Shown piece after piece: positions 181 through 8,606 of a stretch of 32,432 nucleotides of DNA; position 1 is the first letter of the stretch; every line of letters starts with the position of its first letter. Under the pieces are notes generated by a model. It saw only the letters and a list, made by a program, of their open reading frames with translations, was not told the DNA's origin and did not search any database. The stretch lies in assembly GCF_003334255.1 (NCBI RefSeq), contig NZ_QOWU01000058.1. The stretch is one strand, 5' to 3'. Made by a program: the position numbers and the translations under genes. This stretch comes from Escherichia coli. GTDB taxonomy: Bacteria; Pseudomonadota; Gammaproteobacteria; Enterobacterales; Enterobacteriaceae.

Positions 181-1409
181 GATAACGGTTCATGTATCCC
201 CTGAGCTGACAGTGTACCGTGTATATTAAGCGTAACCGACAGGTTCTCCTTCATACCATATTAAATTTTCCAGGTATTGCCGCTGCCTTATTTCGTCCCA
301 TACAGGAAAACTCATCTGGGTTTCTGACAAATACGCGAAACTCACAGCCCCTCAATATCAACCACACGTTGTAAGCCGGTAATACCTGAAAATCAGCCCA
401 TTACTGCCCACGCCTCCGGCACCATTCCCTTTTGATTTCGAATTCTTTGTTGTCGCTATACCGCTTAATGTTCCCGGTCCTCCGGTGCAGATAACACCGG
501 AGTCATCGTAGCGCTGCTTCAATATTCAGGTGACATATTTCCAGACGGAAGCCGGCGCGCGATCGTAAAGTTTGTTAATTGTCAGTTCTGCCAGCCGGTT
601 GTCAACGGCAGAGTTAAAGGCTTCCAGCTCCGCAAGGGTAAGTTTATAACGCGTGTGGGAATTCACTTTTCCCGCGTCTCCTGACGTATTACGGGCTGCC
701 ACTTACCTGGTGTCCCGCAATACAGCCTTAGTGTTCCGTTATCGGGGATCCGGACGCACCGCAACAACCGGGGAAGTATTTCTGGTTTAGAGCAGTGTCA
801 AGAGGGATTTCTCAGCCCCTCACTCACCGGCTCAGTCTCAGGGCAGGAGCATTAATACGCTCAGTTCATGTCTTATACAGGAATGGGCACAGGGGGAGCT
901 GGCGTGTCACTGCTGATTTTACGCATCAGCGTTCATGTATCTGCACTCTGATACATGAACGATTCACAGCGCTCTGTTACCGGAGAGATTTACTCTCTTA
1001 GCTTACTCTGGCAAATCCTTTACGTTACTCTCTGATGACTTCTTATATTTATAATACCAATCAGACAGCCTTATCCCATCGGTGATATCAGTCTCCTCCT
1101 CGCCAGGAACGGGCTGACTCACTGTAACCACCTCCGAAAACAACTCTGCAATTATCAGAACGCCTGCTTCTCTCCCTGTCCTCACGAAAACTACCCCCTC
1201 TTTATCGCGCGTGCGTGCGGAAGCATCTTTTCGCAACAACCACCCGGTATACCGGTACGGCTCAGCCACCGCAACCTCCCCGTTTATCTCCTGGCGGTCA
1301 CATTCCCGATTATTTTTTACGTTTCTCCCCGGTTGTTATGCCGGTGAAGGTGGCGCGCTGTTTTCATGACCACACCGGCTGGTTTAACAACATCCGGAGG
1401 AACATTCTC

Positions 1410-1616
1410 ATGGCTACCCCAGTTTCACTGATGGATGACCAGATGGTCGACATGGCATTTATCACTCAACTGACCGGCCTGACAGATAAGTGGTTTTACA
1501 GGCTCATCAGGGATGGGGCCTTTCCGGCTCCCATCAAGCTGGGCCGCAGCTCCCGCTGGCTGAAAAGTGAAGTGGAAGCCTGGCTACAGGCGCGTATTGC
1601 ACAGCCCCGCCCGTAA
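1410..1616 (+). CDS. alpA: AlpA-family (phage/island) transcriptional regulator
   Basis: 68-aa product MATPVSLMDDQMVDMAFITQLTGLTDKWFYRLIRDGAFPAPIKLGRSSRWLKSEVEAWLQARIAQPRP with typical AlpA size and helix-turn-helix layout. GGAGG Shine-Dalgarno at 1396-1400 precedes the ATG at 1410. The longer 1215 start in the ORF track is probably a spurious upstream extension. Symbol denotes family homolog, not proven ortholog. Confidence 0.8.
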   Translation: MATPVSLMDDQMVDMAFITQLTGLTDKWFYRLIRDGAFPAPIKLGRSSRWLKSEVEAWLQARIAQPRP

Positions 1617-1710
1617 TTTCTGACCGTTATCCGTTCACCCGCAGCAGACGTAATCCCCGGCCTGCCGGCGGCATTCTGCTGCCTGTTATATCCCCGTGAG
1701 GAATATGAAA

Positions 1711-2313
1711 ATGAAACAACAGTATCAGACCCGCTACGAATGGCTCCACGAAAGCTACCAGAAATGGCTGACCGGCTTCACCCGGCACGCCGTATCCTGG
1801 GGCGTGTGTCATCCGAATATCTACTACTTCCATAATCTGACGCCCGGGTGGGTGTCATTCAATGGTGAAAAACCGGAGATTGCCATCGTACCCCAGAGCC
1901 TGCACCGGCTGATTTATGGCCCTGACAAACGGGCCACGCCGCCCCTGGATGATGATCTGATCGTGAATTTATGCACCAGTGAACATCTGCTGGTTCATCA
2001 TCCGATGCTGGAAGGCATTCTCCTGTCTGAATGTGAACGTCTGAGGCAGCGTTCTCTGGCAAATAAACTGATTAGCCTCTTCCGTCAGTTTGGTGGCACG
2101 GAGTTGCGCCTCAAACTGGTCTGGCTTTGCTGGCTTGATTTAATGACCGGAAACAGCCTTGAAGACTGGAAAGAGAACCTGAAACGGAAATCAGAAAAAG
2201 AGCTGGAGGAATGGATCATCAACCGTCAGAGGCAGAGCACAGCACTGACGGATCTGATGGATCAGTACGTGCTCCTGGCATACCGCACAACGGTTGACGA
2301 TAACCGCAACTGA
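1711..2313 (+). CDS. Conserved island protein of unknown function (possibly YfjJ/YagK-like; family assignment unverified)
   Basis: ~200-aa ORF directly downstream of the alpA-like gene, with GTGAGGA Shine-Dalgarno at 1696-1702 and ATG at 1705 or 1711. No diagnostic motif recognised by eye. Confidence 0.55.
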   Translation: MKQQYQTRYEWLHESYQKWLTGFTRHAVSWGVCHPNIYYFHNLTPGWVSFNGEKPEIAIVPQSLHRLIYGPDKRATPPLDDDLIVNLCTSEHLLVHHPMLEGILLSECERLRQRSLANKLISLFRQFGGTELRLKLVWLCWLDLMTGNSLEDWKENLKRKSEKELEEWIINRQRQSTALTDLMDQYVLLAYRTTVDDNRN

Positions 2314-3513
2314 TGCCGGTTGCTTCCGGAAGGTGTGACAAAATACGGAAATGATGATGCTCCCGGCCCCGCATGCTCACCTGCAGAGCGTGTTCGTCGT
2401 CATCATACTGAGCCATGACGGGCGTCTTAAGGGCATCCTGTCATTGCTGAGCAGGCAACACCACCAGAGGAGCCACGGACAGGGATGTTCTTTACAGCCC
2501 GATGCACGCCAGGTTCTCAGCAGACTGAATGTGCAGGTGCGGTTATTCACCAGAAATGGCATGCTGCGGTACATACCCATCCTGGTGACAATATGTACGT
2601 GGCGACAGCGATCCCGGCACTGTGGAAGAGACTCACTCAGCCTGCAGGATATTCTTTCCGGCATCCGGGAATGTCCGCCTGAATGCAAACAGGATGATAT
2701 TTGAATCCGTAATACTGTTCTTTCATCATAAATAATTTATGCAGATACAGTTAACCGTAACAGTAGCAGGTTTGTTTTCCCGGGAAATAATATCCGTCAG
2801 ACTGATGCCGGAACATATCTGAAACACGTTATGATGTTTTGTTATCAGAAATGTTGTATATTCTTATCCGTGGCGACAGTTTAATGCCCTCTGGTATCAC
2901 CTGATAATGCATATCCTGCGATGATTCGTTATATTTACGGGACACGCCTCTTTTCATTGTGCTCCTTTTCAGACTTCATTTTCCGTAAGTGTTCCCCGGC
3001 ATAAAGGAGGTACCTTTCTGGCGTTTATAACTCTCTTTATCGGTGACGCCGGTAATACAGGGAATACCACACCGACAAACGAGGTATTAACAGACGATAT
3101 TTCAGTGTCCATAATTTTTCTGTCCGGTTAAATAACGTCAGTCTGCTGCCCTCTGACTGTAATCATCAAAGCCGGAATGCATACCGGGTTACAACGTAAA
3201 AAAAGTGATGCTGGCCCCCGGTGCAGCTGGCGGGCGAAACATGTTTACCTTTCAATACCCCCTGTCTGCAGTCTCCACTCTTCCATCCTCTTAAGCTACG
3301 TCGGCCACATGAGTGCACTTCCATGATAACAGGTATTCCTGTCAGCATAACGAAGCCGGTTACCTTCCCTTCCTCCTGCATTTCCTGTCAGAATGACTGT
3401 ACAGCGCGCAGATTGCCTTTTTATTGACCACCTTAATATACCATTATAAACTTCTTTTTATCATGTTATTATCACCTTATTATGTTTAATTTTTAAGCAA
3501 CCGGAGAAAGAGG

Positions 3514-4431
3514 ATGGTTCAGAAAATTTTGTCGGATAAGGTTATGAATGAAAGAACAAATGCGTATTACTCTTATTATCTTGGAGAGCGTAATATCTCC
3601 GTACTACCCCTTAATGTTTATGATCCCCCGGAACGTTTTATCGCTTACATAAAAAAAAACAGAGAAAATCTGAACATCACACTTTCAGATTTTGAACTTG
3701 AACAAATAATTTCTGGTATGCGTCTGAAGGCCCTGGCCTTCCTGGTCCCCCTGGAAAAAATATCCTGGATCGCGGGCAGTGAACGCGCATGCTTATTTTC
3801 CTGGTATCTGTTGATGCAGTTTATCCAGAATAACAGGGCAAAAATAAGCGCAGACTTGCTTCAAAAGAATAAACTGTATCTTAAAGAAGAGTATCTGGAA
3901 GGGAATGCCTTCCCGTCGGACTCATCGACACAGTTCAGACAAATACTCAGAGTTCTCGATATTCTTTCTGATAAGAATTTGCGGGATGAGTGGATAATCC
4001 AGACCAAAGACAGATGGATGCGGGCATTTAAATCAAAGAGTCCTTTCAGTTACCTCCTCCCGGAGAACGAACATGAATGCATATGGACATGGAATTATTT
4101 GAAGGGAAAAAATATTGCACTGGAAAAACTGGCCAGTTTTCCTGGTTCTGCTGATATTTACCACGCAATTCACCTTTCATTTGACATATGGGTTACCTGT
4201 CCACTCACCTCACCTGACGATATAAAAAATTTCAGAAACAGTTTCAATAAGGCCAAGGCGCAGCGCAAGTACAAAAAAATGCAGGAAGATAAAGTCAATG
4301 TACAGTTTTTTCTTGACGCAGAAACCAGGGCGCAGCTCAAAGAATTATCGAGGGTCAGAAGACTCAGTACCGGCGAAATGCTGCATGACCTGATTGTTGA
4401 AGAGTATAAAAGGTACCGACATTCCAGATAA
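3514..4431 (+). CDS. Orphan hypothetical protein (305 aa) with a C-terminal ribbon-helix-helix-like segment
   Basis: Clean 918-nt ORF in a visibly AT-rich segment, with AGAGG Shine-Dalgarno just upstream of the ATG at 3514. The C-terminus VQFFLDAETRAQLKELSRVRRLSTGEMLHDLIVEEYKRY has the strand/helix/turn/helix pattern of RHH (CopG/Arc-like) DNA-binding domains. The N-terminal ~260 aa are unrecognised and contain no P-loop. Confidence 0.65.
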   Translation: MVQKILSDKVMNERTNAYYSYYLGERNISVLPLNVYDPPERFIAYIKKNRENLNITLSDFELEQIISGMRLKALAFLVPLEKISWIAGSERACLFSWYLLMQFIQNNRAKISADLLQKNKLYLKEEYLEGNAFPSDSSTQFRQILRVLDILSDKNLRDEWIIQTKDRWMRAFKSKSPFSYLLPENEHECIWTWNYLKGKNIALEKLASFPGSADIYHAIHLSFDIWVTCPLTSPDDIKNFRNSFNKAKAQRKYKKMQEDKVNVQFFLDAETRAQLKELSRVRRLSTGEMLHDLIVEEYKRYRHSR

Positions 4432-4457
4432 TTTCAGACATATATTATCTCCGTGAG

Positions 4458-4499
4458 TCCCCCACCACCTTTCCGGTGTGCGGGGGTTTTGTCTTTTTT
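4458..4499 (+). terminator. Candidate rho-independent terminator (GC-rich dyad followed by a T-tract)
   Basis: gtcccccaccacctttccggtgtgcggggg followed by ttttgtctttttt, immediately downstream of the 3514-4431 ORF. The stem is imperfect. Confidence 0.4.
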
Positions 4500-4515
4500 C
4501 ACCGGGAATACATGT

Positions 4516-5388
4516 ATGAATCCGTCTGATGCCATTGAGGCAATTGAAAAACCGCTCTCCTCCCTGCCTTACTCACTTTCCCGTCACATCCTGGAACATC
4601 TGCGCAAACTCACCAGTCACGAACCCGTGATTGGCATTATGGGTAAAAGCGGGGCCGGTAAATCCTCACTCTGTAATGCACTGTTTCAGGGGGAGGTCAC
4701 CCCGGTCAGTGATGTTCACGCCGGCACCCGGGAAGTGCGGCGCTTCCGTCTGAGTGGCCACGGTCACAGCATGATTATCACTGACCTGCCCGGGGTGGGC
4801 GAGAGCCGGGACAGGGATGCAGAGTATGAAGCCCTGTACCGTGACATTCTGCCTGAACTTGACCTGGTACTGTGGCTGATTAAAGCCGATGACCGTGCCC
4901 TGTCTGTGGATGAGTATTTCTGGCGACACATCCTGCACCGGGGACATCAGCAGGTGCTGTTTGTGGTGACGCAGGCCGACAAAACGGAGCCCTGCCATGA
5001 ATGGGATATGGCCGGCATTCAGCCTTCTCCCGCACAGGCACAGAACATTCGTGAGAAAACAGATGCGGTATTCCGGCTGTTCCGGCCCGTACATCCGGTT
5101 GTGGCCGTATCGGCCCGCACCGGCTGGGAACTGGATACGCTGGTCAGTGCGCTCATGACAGCGCTTCCCGACCATGCCGCCAGTCCCCTGATGACCCGCC
5201 TGCAGGACGAGCTGCGCACGGAATCTGTCCGCGCTCAGGCCCGTGAACAGTTTACCGGTGCGGTGGACCGGATATTTGACACGGCGGAGAGCGTCTGTGT
5301 TGCCTCTGTTGCCCGTACGGTTCTGCGTGCCGTCCGTGACACGGTGGTCTCTGTTGCCCGCGCTGTATGGAACTGGATTTTCTTCTGA
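4516..5388 (+). CDS. yeeP: YeeP/YfjP/YkfA-family putative GTP-binding protein (50S ribosome-binding GTPase-like)
   Basis: Walker A GKSGAGKSS, DLPGVG (G3) and TQADK (G4-like) motifs. Sits immediately upstream of the Ag43 gene as in CP4-44. Start chosen at the internal ATG 4516; the GTG at 4453 is an alternative. Symbol is by synteny and family; yfjP and ykfA are paralogs. Confidence 0.8.
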   Translation: MNPSDAIEAIEKPLSSLPYSLSRHILEHLRKLTSHEPVIGIMGKSGAGKSSLCNALFQGEVTPVSDVHAGTREVRRFRLSGHGHSMIITDLPGVGESRDRDAEYEALYRDILPELDLVLWLIKADDRALSVDEYFWRHILHRGHQQVLFVVTQADKTEPCHEWDMAGIQPSPAQAQNIREKTDAVFRLFRPVHPVVAVSARTGWELDTLVSALMTALPDHAASPLMTRLQDELRTESVRAQAREQFTGAVDRIFDTAESVCVASVARTVLRAVRDTVVSVARAVWNWIFF

Positions 5389-5499: not shown

Positions 5500-5545
5500 A
5501 TAAAACGATCGATAAAACAGGTATCAATCGTTGCTATCGATCGTT
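5500..5545. promoter_or_regulatory. Ag43 upstream regulatory segment with Dam GATC sites (candidate OxyR/Dam phase-variation switch)
   Basis: GATC at 5507-5510 and 5539-5542 within aacGATCgataaaacaggtatcaatcgttgctatcGATCgtttat, ~220-250 bp upstream of the Ag43 start. The OxyR/Dam switch of agn43 is established knowledge; that this exact segment is the operator is inference. Confidence 0.45.
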
Positions 5546-5759
5546 TATAGTGGTTAATGGTCTGCGAAAAGGCAGCTGAATCTCTTCATCATGCAGAACG
5601 GAATTGCACACAACGGACTGATACTTCTCTGGCGGATGAGAGAGGGGAAGCATTTATGTCCGGGAAAAACCACTTTATCTGACCATGCTGTTTTGTACCT
5701 GCCGGTATCCACTTTTGTGGGTACCGGCTTTTTTATTCACCCTCTGTAAGGAAAAGCTG

Positions 5760-8606
5760 ATGAAACGACATCTGAACACCAGCTACAGGCTGGTATGGAA
5801 TCACATTACGGGCACCCTGGTGGTGGCTTCCGAACTGGCCCGCTCACGGGGAAAACGCGCCGGTGTGGCGGTTGTGCTGTCTCTTGCTGCTGTCACATCA
5901 GTCCCGGCACTGGCTGCTGACACGGTTGTACAGGCGGGAGAAACCGTGAACGGCGGAACACTGACAAATCATGACAACCAGATTGTTCTCGGTACGGCCA
6001 ACGGAATGACCATCAGTAGCGGTCTGGAGTATGGGCCGGATAACGAGGCCAATACCGGCGGGCAATGGATACAAAATGGCGGTATCGCCAACAACACTAC
6101 TGTCACCGGTGGTGGTCTTCAGAGAGTGAATGCCGGAGGAAGCGTTTCAGACACGGTTATCAGTGCCGGAGGCGGACAGAGCCTTCAGGGGCAGGCAGTG
6201 AATACCACTCTGAACGGCGGTGAGCAGTGGGTACATGAAGGCGGGATTGCAACAGGTACCGTCATTAATGAGAAGGGCTGGCAGGCCGTCAAATCCGGCG
6301 CAATGGCAACCGACACGGTTGTGAATACCGGCGCGGAAGGGGGACCGGATGCAGAAAATGGTGATACCGGGCAGTTTGTTCGCGGAAATGCCGTACGTAC
6401 CACCATCAATAAAAATGGTCGTCAGATTGTGGCTGTTGAAGGAACAGCAAATACCACTGTGGTTTATGCCGGCGGCGACCAGACGGTACACGGGCATGCG
6501 CTGGATACCACGTTGAATGGGGGGTACCAGTATGTGCACAACGGAGGCACAGCCTCTGACACGGTTGTAAACAGTGACGGCTGGCAGATTGTCAAGGAAG
6601 GTGGTCTGGCGGATTTCACCACCGTTAACCAGAAAGGCAAACTGCAGGTGAACGCCGGTGGTACAGCCACGAATGTCACCCTGAAGCAGGGCGGCGCACT
6701 GGTCACCAGTACGGCGGCAACCGTCACCGGCAGCAACCGTCTGGGCAATTTCACGGTGGAAAACGGTAATGCTGACGGTGTTGTTCTGGAGTCCGGCGGT
6801 CGCCTGGATGTACTGGAAGGCCATTCAGCGCAGAAAACACGGGTGGATGACGGCGGAACCCTGGCAGTGTCTGCCGGTGGTAAGGCAACAGATGTCACCA
6901 TGACATCCGGTAGTGCCCTGATTGCAGACAGTGGTGCCACTGTTGAGGGGACCAATGCCAGCGGTAAGTTCAGTATTGATGGCATATCCGGTCAGGCCAG
7001 CGGCCTGCTGCTGGAAAATGGCGGCAGCTTTACGGTTAATGCCGGGGGACAGGCCAGCAACACCACTGTCGGACATCGTGGAACACTGATGCTGGCTGCC
7101 GGGGGAAGTCTGAGTGGCAGAACACAGCTCAGTAAAGGCGCCAGCATGGTACTGAATGGTGATGTGGTCAGTACCGGCGATATTGTTAACGCAGGGGAGA
7201 TTTACTTTGACAATCAGACAACACCGGATGCCGTACTGAGCCGTGCTGTTGCAAAAGGCAACGCCCCGGTAACGTTCCATAAACTGACAACCAGTAACCT
7301 CACCGGTCAGGGTGGCACCATCAATATGCGTGTTCGCCTTGATGGCAGCAATGCCTCTGACCAGCTGGTGATTAATGGTGGTCAGGCAACCGGCAAAACC
7401 TGGCTTGCGTTTACAAATGTCGGAAACAGCAACCTCGGGGTGGCAACCACCGGACAGGGTATCCGGGTTGTGGATGCACAGAATGGCGCCACCACAGAAG
7501 AAGGTGCGTTTGCCCTGAGTCGCCCGCTTCAGGCCGGCGCCTTTAACTACACCCTGAACCGTGACAGCGATGAAGACTGGTACCTGCGCAGTGAAAATGC
7601 TTATCGTGCTGAAGTCCCCCTGTATGCCTCCATGCTGACACAGGCAATGGACTATGACCGGATTCTGGCAGGCTCCCGCAGCCATCAGACCGGTGTAAAC
7701 GGTGAAAATAACAGCGTCCGTCTCAGCATTCAGGGCGGTCATCTCGGTCACGATAACAACGGCGGTATTGCCCGTGGAGCCACGCCGGAAAGCAGCGGCA
7801 GCTATGGCTTCGTCCGTCTGGAGGGTGACCTGCTCAGAACAGAGGTTGCCGGTATGTCTGTGACCGCGGGGGTATATGGTGCTGCTGGCCATTCTTCCGT
7901 TGATGTTAAGGATGATGACGGTTCCCGCGCCGGCACGGTCCGGGATGATGCCGGCAGCCTGGGCGGATACCTGAATCTGACACACACGTCCTCCGGCCTG
8001 TGGGCTGACATTGTGGCCCAGGGAACCCGCCACAGCATGAAAGCGTCATCGGACAATAACGACTTCCGCGCCCGGGGCTGGGGCTGGCTGGGCTCACTGG
8101 AAACCGGTCTGCCCTTCAGTATCACTGACAACCTGATGCTGGAGCCACAACTGCAGTATACCTGGCAGGGACTTTCCCTGGATGACGGCCAGGATAACGC
8201 CGGTTATGTGAAGTTCGGGCATGGCAGTGCACAACATGTGCGTGCCGGTTTCCGTCTGGGCAGCCACAACGATATGACCTTTGGCGAAGGCACCTCATCC
8301 CGTGACACTCTGCGCGACAGTACAAAACACCGTGTGAGTGAACTGCCGGTGAACTGGTGGGTACAGCCTTCTGTTATCCGCACTTTCAGCTCCCGGGGTG
8401 ACATGAGCATGGGTACAGCCGCCGCCGGCAGTAACATGACGTTCTCACCGTCCCGGAATGGCACGTCACTGGACCTGCAGGCCGGACTGGAAGCCCGTGT
8501 CCGGGAAAATATCACCCTGGGCGTTCAGGCCGGTTATGCCCACAGCGTCAGCGGCAGCAGCGCTGAAGGTTATAACGGTCAGGCCACGCTGAATGTGACT
8601 TTTTGA
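5760..8606 (+). CDS. flu: Antigen 43 (Ag43) self-associating autotransporter adhesin
   Basis: 948-aa product. Extended signal peptide [52 protein letters not shown], repetitive beta-helical passenger (GG/NGG/TxVxxGG repeats) and a C-terminal beta-barrel ending in TLNVTF. AAGGAAAAG Shine-Dalgarno precedes the ATG at 5760. The antisense ORFs in the track across this gene are artifacts. Confidence 0.9.

Follow-up and report, generated by a model that had tools for sequence, protein, structure and literature searches.

A decayed alpA gene, its orphaned leader and a candidate promoter region in an unannotated gap of CP4-like Escherichia coli islands

The apparently empty tract at positions 2700-3513 of the window (the whole 32,432-nt stretch of E. 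coli DNA that was analysed) is, in our assessment, quite probably a mosaic left behind by a rearranged island backbone, and not a functional small gene or RNA. At its centre lies the relic of an alpA-type regulator gene (2941-3112, minus strand), identified by its homology and position; this is joined to the 305-aa gene at 3514 by the former alpA leader, and the last part of the tract before that gene is most likely, judging from its conservation, a promoter/operator region. The value of this result lies mainly in annotation, as about 1,300 complete E. coli genomes have the same unannotated gap of approximately 1.1 kb, whose label may now change from a candidate locus for an sRNA or a small protein to an alpA relic, an orphaned leader and the promoter region of an orphan gene.

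The first 12 kb of the window form a CP4-like genomic island of E. coli. Its genes run from a Hha-family ORF (526-702, minus strand) through an intact alpA (1410-1616, plus strand) and, downstream of it, a gene for a 200-aa hypothetical protein (1711-2313, plus strand) to the gap; beyond the gap are the gene for a 305-aa hypothetical protein (3514-4431, plus strand), which is the first gene of a rightward operon and is followed by that of a YeeP-like GTPase, the IsrC/IS102 RNA (5505-5741; Rfam, 63 bits) and Ag43 (5685-8606), after which come DUF932, antirestriction, RadC and CbeA-like genes. The stretch 2300-3600 was found in 1,932 of 5,426 complete E. coli genomes, and 1,286 of these hold at least 80% of it; NCTC86 and the type strain DSM 30083 = ATCC 11775 are among the strains whose copy is ≥99.8% identical. 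The unannotated DNA is larger than the flagged tract and extends from about 2417 to 3513. Six E. coli records were inspected, and in none of them had PGAP placed a feature within 2700-3513; an occasional call in the gap is a 65-aa hypothetical protein at 2485-2682. As originally predicted, the tract was found to be free of any credible long ORF: the longest frames encode 71 aa (3166-3381, minus strand) and 68 aa (3221-3427, plus strand), and these were rightly regarded as spurious, being located on opposite strands, overlapping each other and matching nothing in NCBIfam or PHROGs. The same two collections and Pfam gave no match to any other ORF of the gap, and no tRNA or tmRNA was detected in a scan for such genes. 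The repeat search revealed no iterons or arrays, only short two-copy chance matches and one 23-nt inverted repeat, and the titles and abstracts retrieved by literature searches contained nothing on the spacer in front of the 305-aa gene.

The organisation of related islands was examined for comparison. In all eight relatives the 305-aa gene (49-78% protein identity) is the first of a rightward operon, with the GTPase gene next, and in six of the eight a leftward alpA lies directly across a spacer of 408-422 bp. The order 197-aa gene (leftward), alpA (leftward), spacer, 305-aa gene (rightward) is displayed by the loci L007 (Salmonella), L008 (Serratia), L011 and L017 and by their sister contigs. 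In L020-L026 the leftward alpA is located one gene further off and the spacer measures 600-1000 bp, and the E. coli locus L033 is arranged divergently in the same way, except that its first gene is another one (368 aa). The window differs from these loci, since its intact pair of alpA and 200-aa gene is co-oriented with the 305-aa gene and matches the relatives on the opposite strand only.

The alpA missing from this divergent position was recovered as a relic by nhmmer, a protein HMM, MAFFT alignment and synteny. A search with nhmmer, using a 197aa-alpA-intergenic profile of the relatives, yielded a single match, at 3015-3503 (E 2e-55), which spans the spacer and the first ~33 codons of alpA and aligns the alpA start codon at 3112-3110 on the minus strand. 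When the DNA profile was restricted to alpA, it matched 3080-3021 (minus strand) with an E-value of 5e-5, second in the whole window only to the intact alpA. With a family protein HMM built from the island relatives, three collinear frames were identified, corresponding to amino acids 1-17 (3112-3062), 18-38 (3065-3003; independent E-value 0.0026) and 48-61 (2988-2947). Codons 1-38 (3112-3003) are thus confidently recognisable, and the 3' half (3002 to approximately 2941) weakly so, its homology beyond codon 38 being divided between two competing frames. As observed in the MAFFT alignment, the Shine-Dalgarno (SD) sequence GGAGA has become GGACAGA, and deletions of 4 nt and 3 nt have occurred. 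The distance from the relic start to the ATG of the 305-aa gene is 402 bp, compared to 408-422 bp in the relatives. An intact ORF of about 68 codons with a ribosome-binding site is no longer present, as three frames are needed to follow the relic and stop codons intervene. Frameshift-corrected conceptual translation of the relic gave no match to the Pfam model Phage_AlpA (PF05930), and because this generic model misses it the relic was identified by its descent and not by a family signature. DNA homology to alpA and the syntenic position together indicate that 2941-3112 should be regarded as a pseudogene, pseudo-alpA, and not as a gene: it occupies the same position and strand as alpA of the relatives, is frameshifted, and has a damaged SD.

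The relic is DNA-homologous to, and syntenic with, the island genes for AlpA/Vis-type regulators, the small HTH proteins of P4-like cryptic prophages and islands (PF05930; alpA of E. coli CP4-57 is an example). Unlike these it is evidently non-functional, its SD being mutated, its frame broken, its 3' half barely recognisable and its translation invisible to Pfam, whereas the paralogous alpA of the window (1410-1616) is intact. Gene relics are known from CP4-44, a cryptic prophage of E. coli in which they include yeeP and other pseudogenes. CP4-44 belongs to the same island family (YeeP-like GTPase, IsrC/IS102 RNA, Ag43, DUF932, antirestriction, RadC and CbeA-like genes), and its relics have decayed in a similar manner, by frameshifts, deletions and IS insertions; in contrast to them, the alpA relic is unannotated in the RefSeq records inspected and is too decayed for standard pseudogene calling.

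An origin of the tract in a rearranged backbone accounts for both of the features that had drawn attention to it: the SD-like motif would be the antisense of relic codons, and the 42-codon ORF an accidental frame arising from the 3' part of the relic. The motif AAGGAGG is indeed present at 3004-3010 on the plus strand, and at a suitable distance behind it there is no ATG, GTG or TTG but only a CTG (3018-3020). Its description as an unused strong SD did not hold up. It is the reverse complement of a stretch within the relic codons …K-G-T-S-F (AAAGGTACCTCCTTT; …AAA GGT ACC TCC TTT), which align to K-D-G-A-F of AlpA, and three copies of it were counted in the window against 3.19 expected.

The 42-codon ORF (ORF42) was likewise correctly read at 2829-2957 on the minus strand, with precisely the translation that had been given and an AAGGAG (2967-2962, minus strand) 4 nt before its ATG. 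It begins in the 3' part of the relic and runs into the DNA downstream of it; in the alignment its ATG and the AAGGAG fall on the codons of alpA that specify LKSEVE, and it is in frame with relic codons 18-38, behind a stop codon. That ORF42 is a genuine small protein translated from the AAGGAG site seems to us extremely improbable. Such a protein would be in keeping with the good SD-like motif ahead of the ATG, with a frame left uninterrupted in each of the eight DNA copies aligned, and with its prediction by at least one gene caller. Against it, the start is already accounted for by relic alpA codons, PGAP never annotated the ORF in the records inspected, and the check for conservation turned out negative: among 5.8 billion clusters only 16 matched, all of them 74-100% identical to the query, so that no homolog was found beyond near-identical E. 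coli copies (both of the clusters that carry a source name are from E. coli). The clusters range in length from 31 to 68 aa. Several of the variants diverge abruptly through fusion or truncation, and three of them continue, from different points onwards, with a sequence that they have in common, which we take to reflect separate insertions of a single element. L004 and L005 have a frameshift at the C-terminus (53 aa), and in L006 a 15-bp replacement has exchanged 10 residues for 5 (37 aa). In the L029 lineage four non-synonymous substitutions were observed versus one synonymous, five substitutions being too few to formally exclude weak selection. ORF42 was consequently judged to be an accidental, non-functional open frame. 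A resemblance of its 'YQVIPEGIKLSPRIRIY' to the AlpA motif 'YRLIRDGAFPAPIKLGRSSRWL' was considered as a possible echo of that motif and rejected, as tblastn was silent and the site lies ~120 bp from the motif's due place.

Upstream of the relic on its own strand, positions 3113-3429 represent the former alpA leader, or divergent spacer, now orphaned. The segment corresponds by homology to the spacer between alpA and the 305-aa gene in L011 and L017 (~70% locally), an identity of ~70% that was found over 3182/3226-3513 as a whole, and besides the spurious ORFs at 3166-3427 it contains a degraded palindrome (3237-3246), in which the sequence GTGAACATGTTCAC conserved among the relatives has changed to AAACATGTTT. 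In global alignments of this distal spacer the window was 0.55-0.64 identical to four relatives. For L007, L011 and L017 these values are below the identity at 4-fold sites of the 305-aa gene (0.72-0.75), whereas L008, which is more distant, has a higher value in the distal spacer (0.55) than at 4-fold sites (0.46). Among the relatives that retain an intact alpA, the distal spacer is conserved about as well as 4-fold sites or better (0.65-0.70 versus 0.45-0.48 in the pairs L008-L007 and L008-L017). As the deficit relative to 4-fold sites is seen in the window and not among the alpA-bearing relatives, the old leader appears to have lost constraint in the lineage of the window. Disruptions of the segment have also been tolerated: strain G1/2 has an IS1 insertion at 3143-3152, IS1 lies under the match in at least five further listed records, and in a K-12-like variant no more than 64 bp are left in front of the 305-aa gene, which is intact.

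The pattern is reversed in the last part of the tract. Over positions 3430-3498 the identity to the loci of Salmonella (L007) and Serratia (L008) is 91-93%, in comparison to 70-77% for their coding sequence and 46-75% at 4-fold sites, a conservation above that of neutral sites; in global alignment the proximal 84 bp are 0.76-0.83 identical to the relatives, and no substitutions were seen in 3430-3513 in the L029-L032 lineage. Within this region lies a 24-nt core, GTTATTATCACCTTATTATGTTTA (3465-3488), which ends 25 nt ahead of the 305-aa ATG. The core (GTTWTTATMWCCTTATTWTGTTTA) is nearly invariant in nine of nine relatives, down to 49% protein identity. Each locus has a single copy, invariably situated directly before the 305-aa gene, and the window has no second one, with 0 copies expected by chance. 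The core contains two TTATTAT units 11 bp apart and overlaps candidate -10 elements, TGtTATTAT (3464-3472, plus strand) and TATTAT (3478-3483, plus strand). The best rightward promoter in the scan was TTGACC-17-TAAACT (3424-3452; 9/12), the -35 hexamer of which is absent from the relatives. A leftward candidate promoter, TTAAAA-17-GATAAT (3496-3468, minus strand), lies inside the conserved element, and the 305-aa gene has an SD, GGAGA, at 3503-3507 on the plus strand. In view of this cross-genus conservation 3430-3513 is most likely the promoter/operator region and 5' UTR of the 305-aa gene, the positions assigned within it being consensus guesses.

These data also bear on the suggestion that the tract is the long regulatory leader of the gene at 3514, which stands for the last ~85 bp and fails for the rest, where cross-genus conservation with the gene was not detected. 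In its broadest form the suggestion would make the whole 800 bp a regulatory region of the 305-aa gene, either as an H-NS/Hha nucleation site silencing the operon or as a long 5' UTR. The Hha-family protein encoded in the island (526-702, minus strand) and the consistently long spacers upstream of the homologs (410-1000 bp) are compatible with such a role, as is the low GC content of 2700-2899 (34-39%) and 3400-3499 (28%), to which the original prediction had pointed. The description of the tract as AT-rich is valid for these two parts and not for 3200-3399, with 50-53% GC; 2900-3199 is intermediate (43-44%). Conservation together with the gene across genera is limited to 3430-3513, in comparisons with three of the four relatives the distal part has diverged more than the 4-fold sites, the tract is interrupted by IS1 in several strains, and the gene is intact in the variant that has 64 bp upstream of it. 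Because only ~85 bp are conserved, because the 64-bp variant exists, and because IS1 is found at 3143-3152, we do not regard the tract as an 800-bp leader, and we consider a regulatory role for its entire length unlikely.

The possibility that the tract encodes an RNA was addressed by family and folding analyses. No Rfam family matched 2200-3700 at gathering thresholds; when hits up to E = 5 were admitted, the best had E-values of 1.6 and 3.5, with scores far below gathering. Folding of 120-nt RNA windows on both strands gave z-scores of -1.95 or weaker, and RNAalifold on the alpA leader (five sequences) returned a covariation term of +6.08, a positive and hence unfavourable value. The proposal that the tract may be an sRNA therefore gained neither an Rfam family nor a stable fold nor covariation. 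An additional scenario is that a non-coding RNA derives from the relic itself, for example if the old leftward alpA promoter were still firing, through 3460 to about 2800, and the transcript had acquired a regulatory role. The leftward promoter-like site at 3496-3468 within the element conserved across genera would be suitably placed for this, and the inverted repeat at 2637-2805 folds with a z-score of -2.77 on the minus strand (-1.55 on the plus strand), the sole mildly unusual fold observed. The Rfam search was nevertheless blank even with the relaxed cutoff, no terminator-like site was found in 2700-3513, the other fold z-scores are unremarkable and covariation support is absent; the divergence is neutral-like, and the DNA is disrupted by IS elements and indels. 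We accordingly rate a relic-derived RNA as very unlikely. A single-stranded DNA promoter hairpin of the Frpo type was tried as well and rejected, with DNA fold z-scores of -0.10 (plus strand) and -0.56 (minus strand) for 3113-3513 and of -2.06 for 2637-3112 (minus strand).

The mosaic make-up of the gap is evident at its left end. Positions 2314-2636 (block A), which lie outside the flagged tract and inside the same gap, are a non-coding module accompanying the intact pair of alpA and 200-aa gene: 2300-2636 share 87% identity with the DNA that comes after the homologous 200-aa gene in another type of E. coli island (L014), and this homology stops near 2636-2655. For 2637-3181 no blastn homolog was found outside the present island type, and for 2637-2940 neither a blastn nor a tblastx homolog. 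A plasmid search with 2637-3181 retrieved two near-identical E. coli records only, both of which we suspect to be mislabelled chromosomal sequence. The AT-rich DNA at 2637-2940 (34-44% GC) is probably another decayed remnant, located beyond the 3' end of the alpA relic. It may include a trace of the 197-aa gene at 2721-2800 (minus strand): nhmmer gave weak matches to codons ~40-69 of that gene, collinear and on the same strand (E 0.46 and 0.12), and a protein HMM for a remnant of the 197/200-aa gene gave nothing significant in 2637-2940. The inverted repeat mentioned above (arms 2637-2659 and 2783-2805; 23 nt, 83% complementary) is situated at the junction of block A with the next block. Its arms show no sequence variation, and other copies of the repeat in E. 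coli were not found.

Taken together, these observations can be accommodated by the following scenario. The ancestral layout would have been that still seen in the related CP4-like islands, with the operon of the 305-aa protein and the GTPase directed rightward, alpA and the 197-aa gene directed leftward, and a spacer of ~410-420 bp between them, and the window retains of it the spacer (3113-3513) and, at the expected distance and on the expected strand, the frameshifted alpA. Recombination with another island may then have brought in the intact alpA and 200-aa gene together with their own downstream module (1410-2636, plus strand), although the same arrangement might also have arisen by inversion, and the direction of the rearrangement is likewise conjectural. 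The old alpA would have become redundant and decayed, the old 197-aa gene would have been truncated or deleted, and 2637-2940 would be what remains of this DNA, beyond recognition. The working part of the tract would be confined to its last ~85 bp, with one or more sigma-70-type promoters, an operator-like core and an SD. Module replacement in CP4-like islands would also be documented by a case in which a redundant regulator gene decays in place beside its former divergent partner.

In the ancestor, the leftward alpA promoter, too, was probably driven by the conserved element or under its control, and this element is possibly a former divergent promoter pair. Temperate elements have compact switch regions of divergent promoters and operators, for example PR/PRM of lambda and Pe/Pc of P2. 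The conserved element resembles these regions in being a short AT-rich sequence between divergent operons headed by regulators, in which half-sites recur as direct repeats at a distance of one helical turn and candidate promoters stand back to back; the likeness is confined to architecture and, in contrast to those switches, the leftward partner in the window is dead. One speculative extension, to which we attach a rather low probability, is that 3430-3498 may be the operator of an undescribed switch common to CP4-like islands across Enterobacterales. In such a switch a ribbon-helix-helix-like C-terminus of the 305-aa protein would control promoters placed back to back, serving alpA (excision/regulation) on one side and the 305-aa-GTPase operon on the other, and the two arms would have been uncoupled here once the leftward alpA had died and a foreign alpA module had taken over. 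In any case, this ~70-bp conserved element before an uncharacterised gene that heads the GTPase/Ag43 arm is the one element of the tract that is worth an experiment.

The 305-aa protein itself belongs to a small orphan family of 28 clusters, with identities down to 48%, and was assigned to no family of Pfam, NCBIfam or PADLOC. A sequence search of the PDB found no match, and a search of the PDB with the predicted fold gave none with E below 1. The predicted model is all-helical (pLDDT 79.5), and the C-terminus has a weak Arc-like match (E 0.1), pointing to a possible ribbon-helix-helix in this part of the protein.

Sequence divergence between the window (1410-2636 onward) and other loci of an E. 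coli lineage (L029-L032) was seen to fall steeply along the locus: it is 7% in alpA, 5% in the 200-aa gene and 2.3-2.8% in the unannotated gap, and drops to 0.2% within the 305-aa gene that follows. This gradient indicates that recombination breakpoints between lineages of E. coli lie inside or close to the gap. Where homology to block A, the non-coding module accompanying the alpA/200-aa gene pair, comes to an end, an inverted repeat is found, with 23-nt arms (2637-2659 and 2783-2805) that are 83% complementary and enclose 123 nt. The minus-strand RNA of the repeat (2637-2805) displayed a fold z of -2.77; a search for further copies in E. coli found none.

The alpA leaders were compared among relatives in which an intact leftward alpA is divergent from the 305-aa gene homolog (L011, 4580-5000; L017, 4543-4964; L007 of Salmonella, 4366-4784; L008 of Serratia, 4593-5000). 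A perfect 14-bp palindrome, GTGAACATGTTCAC, is conserved in these leaders, as is a hairpin-like motif, CCGG…CCGGAGA, which overlaps the alpA Shine-Dalgarno sequence. Conservation of the ~330-nt leader is about equal to that of 4-fold sites or higher, and the leader may be a control region of alpA.

Upstream of the intact alpA, the window carries a 58-aa Hha/YmoA-family ORF on the minus strand (526-702); the same gene is annotated by PGAP in homologous loci. The presence of an H-NS co-regulator on the island itself bears on the idea that the tract is silenced by H-NS.

In CP4-like islands, the slot at the head of the rightward GTPase operon is variable in content (a gene for 305 aa in the window; for 290 aa and 368 aa elsewhere), and the first-slot genes of the window (3514-4431) and of two other E. 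coli loci (L014, 6479-7351; L033, 4888-5994) are annotated only as hypothetical proteins. No fold relative of the 305-aa protein was detectable in the PDB. A metagenomic copy of the gene (L019, 4582-5436) has a 63-bp in-frame deletion (window 4025-4087) that yields a 284-aa product; the protein can apparently vary in, or do without, the stretch near residues 171-191.

Between the GTPase gene and Ag43 lies the IsrC/IS102 small RNA (5505-5741, plus strand; Rfam RF00124, 63 bits), a known feature of CP4-44-type islands. The longest Ag43 ORF begins within this RNA, so that the two overlap there.
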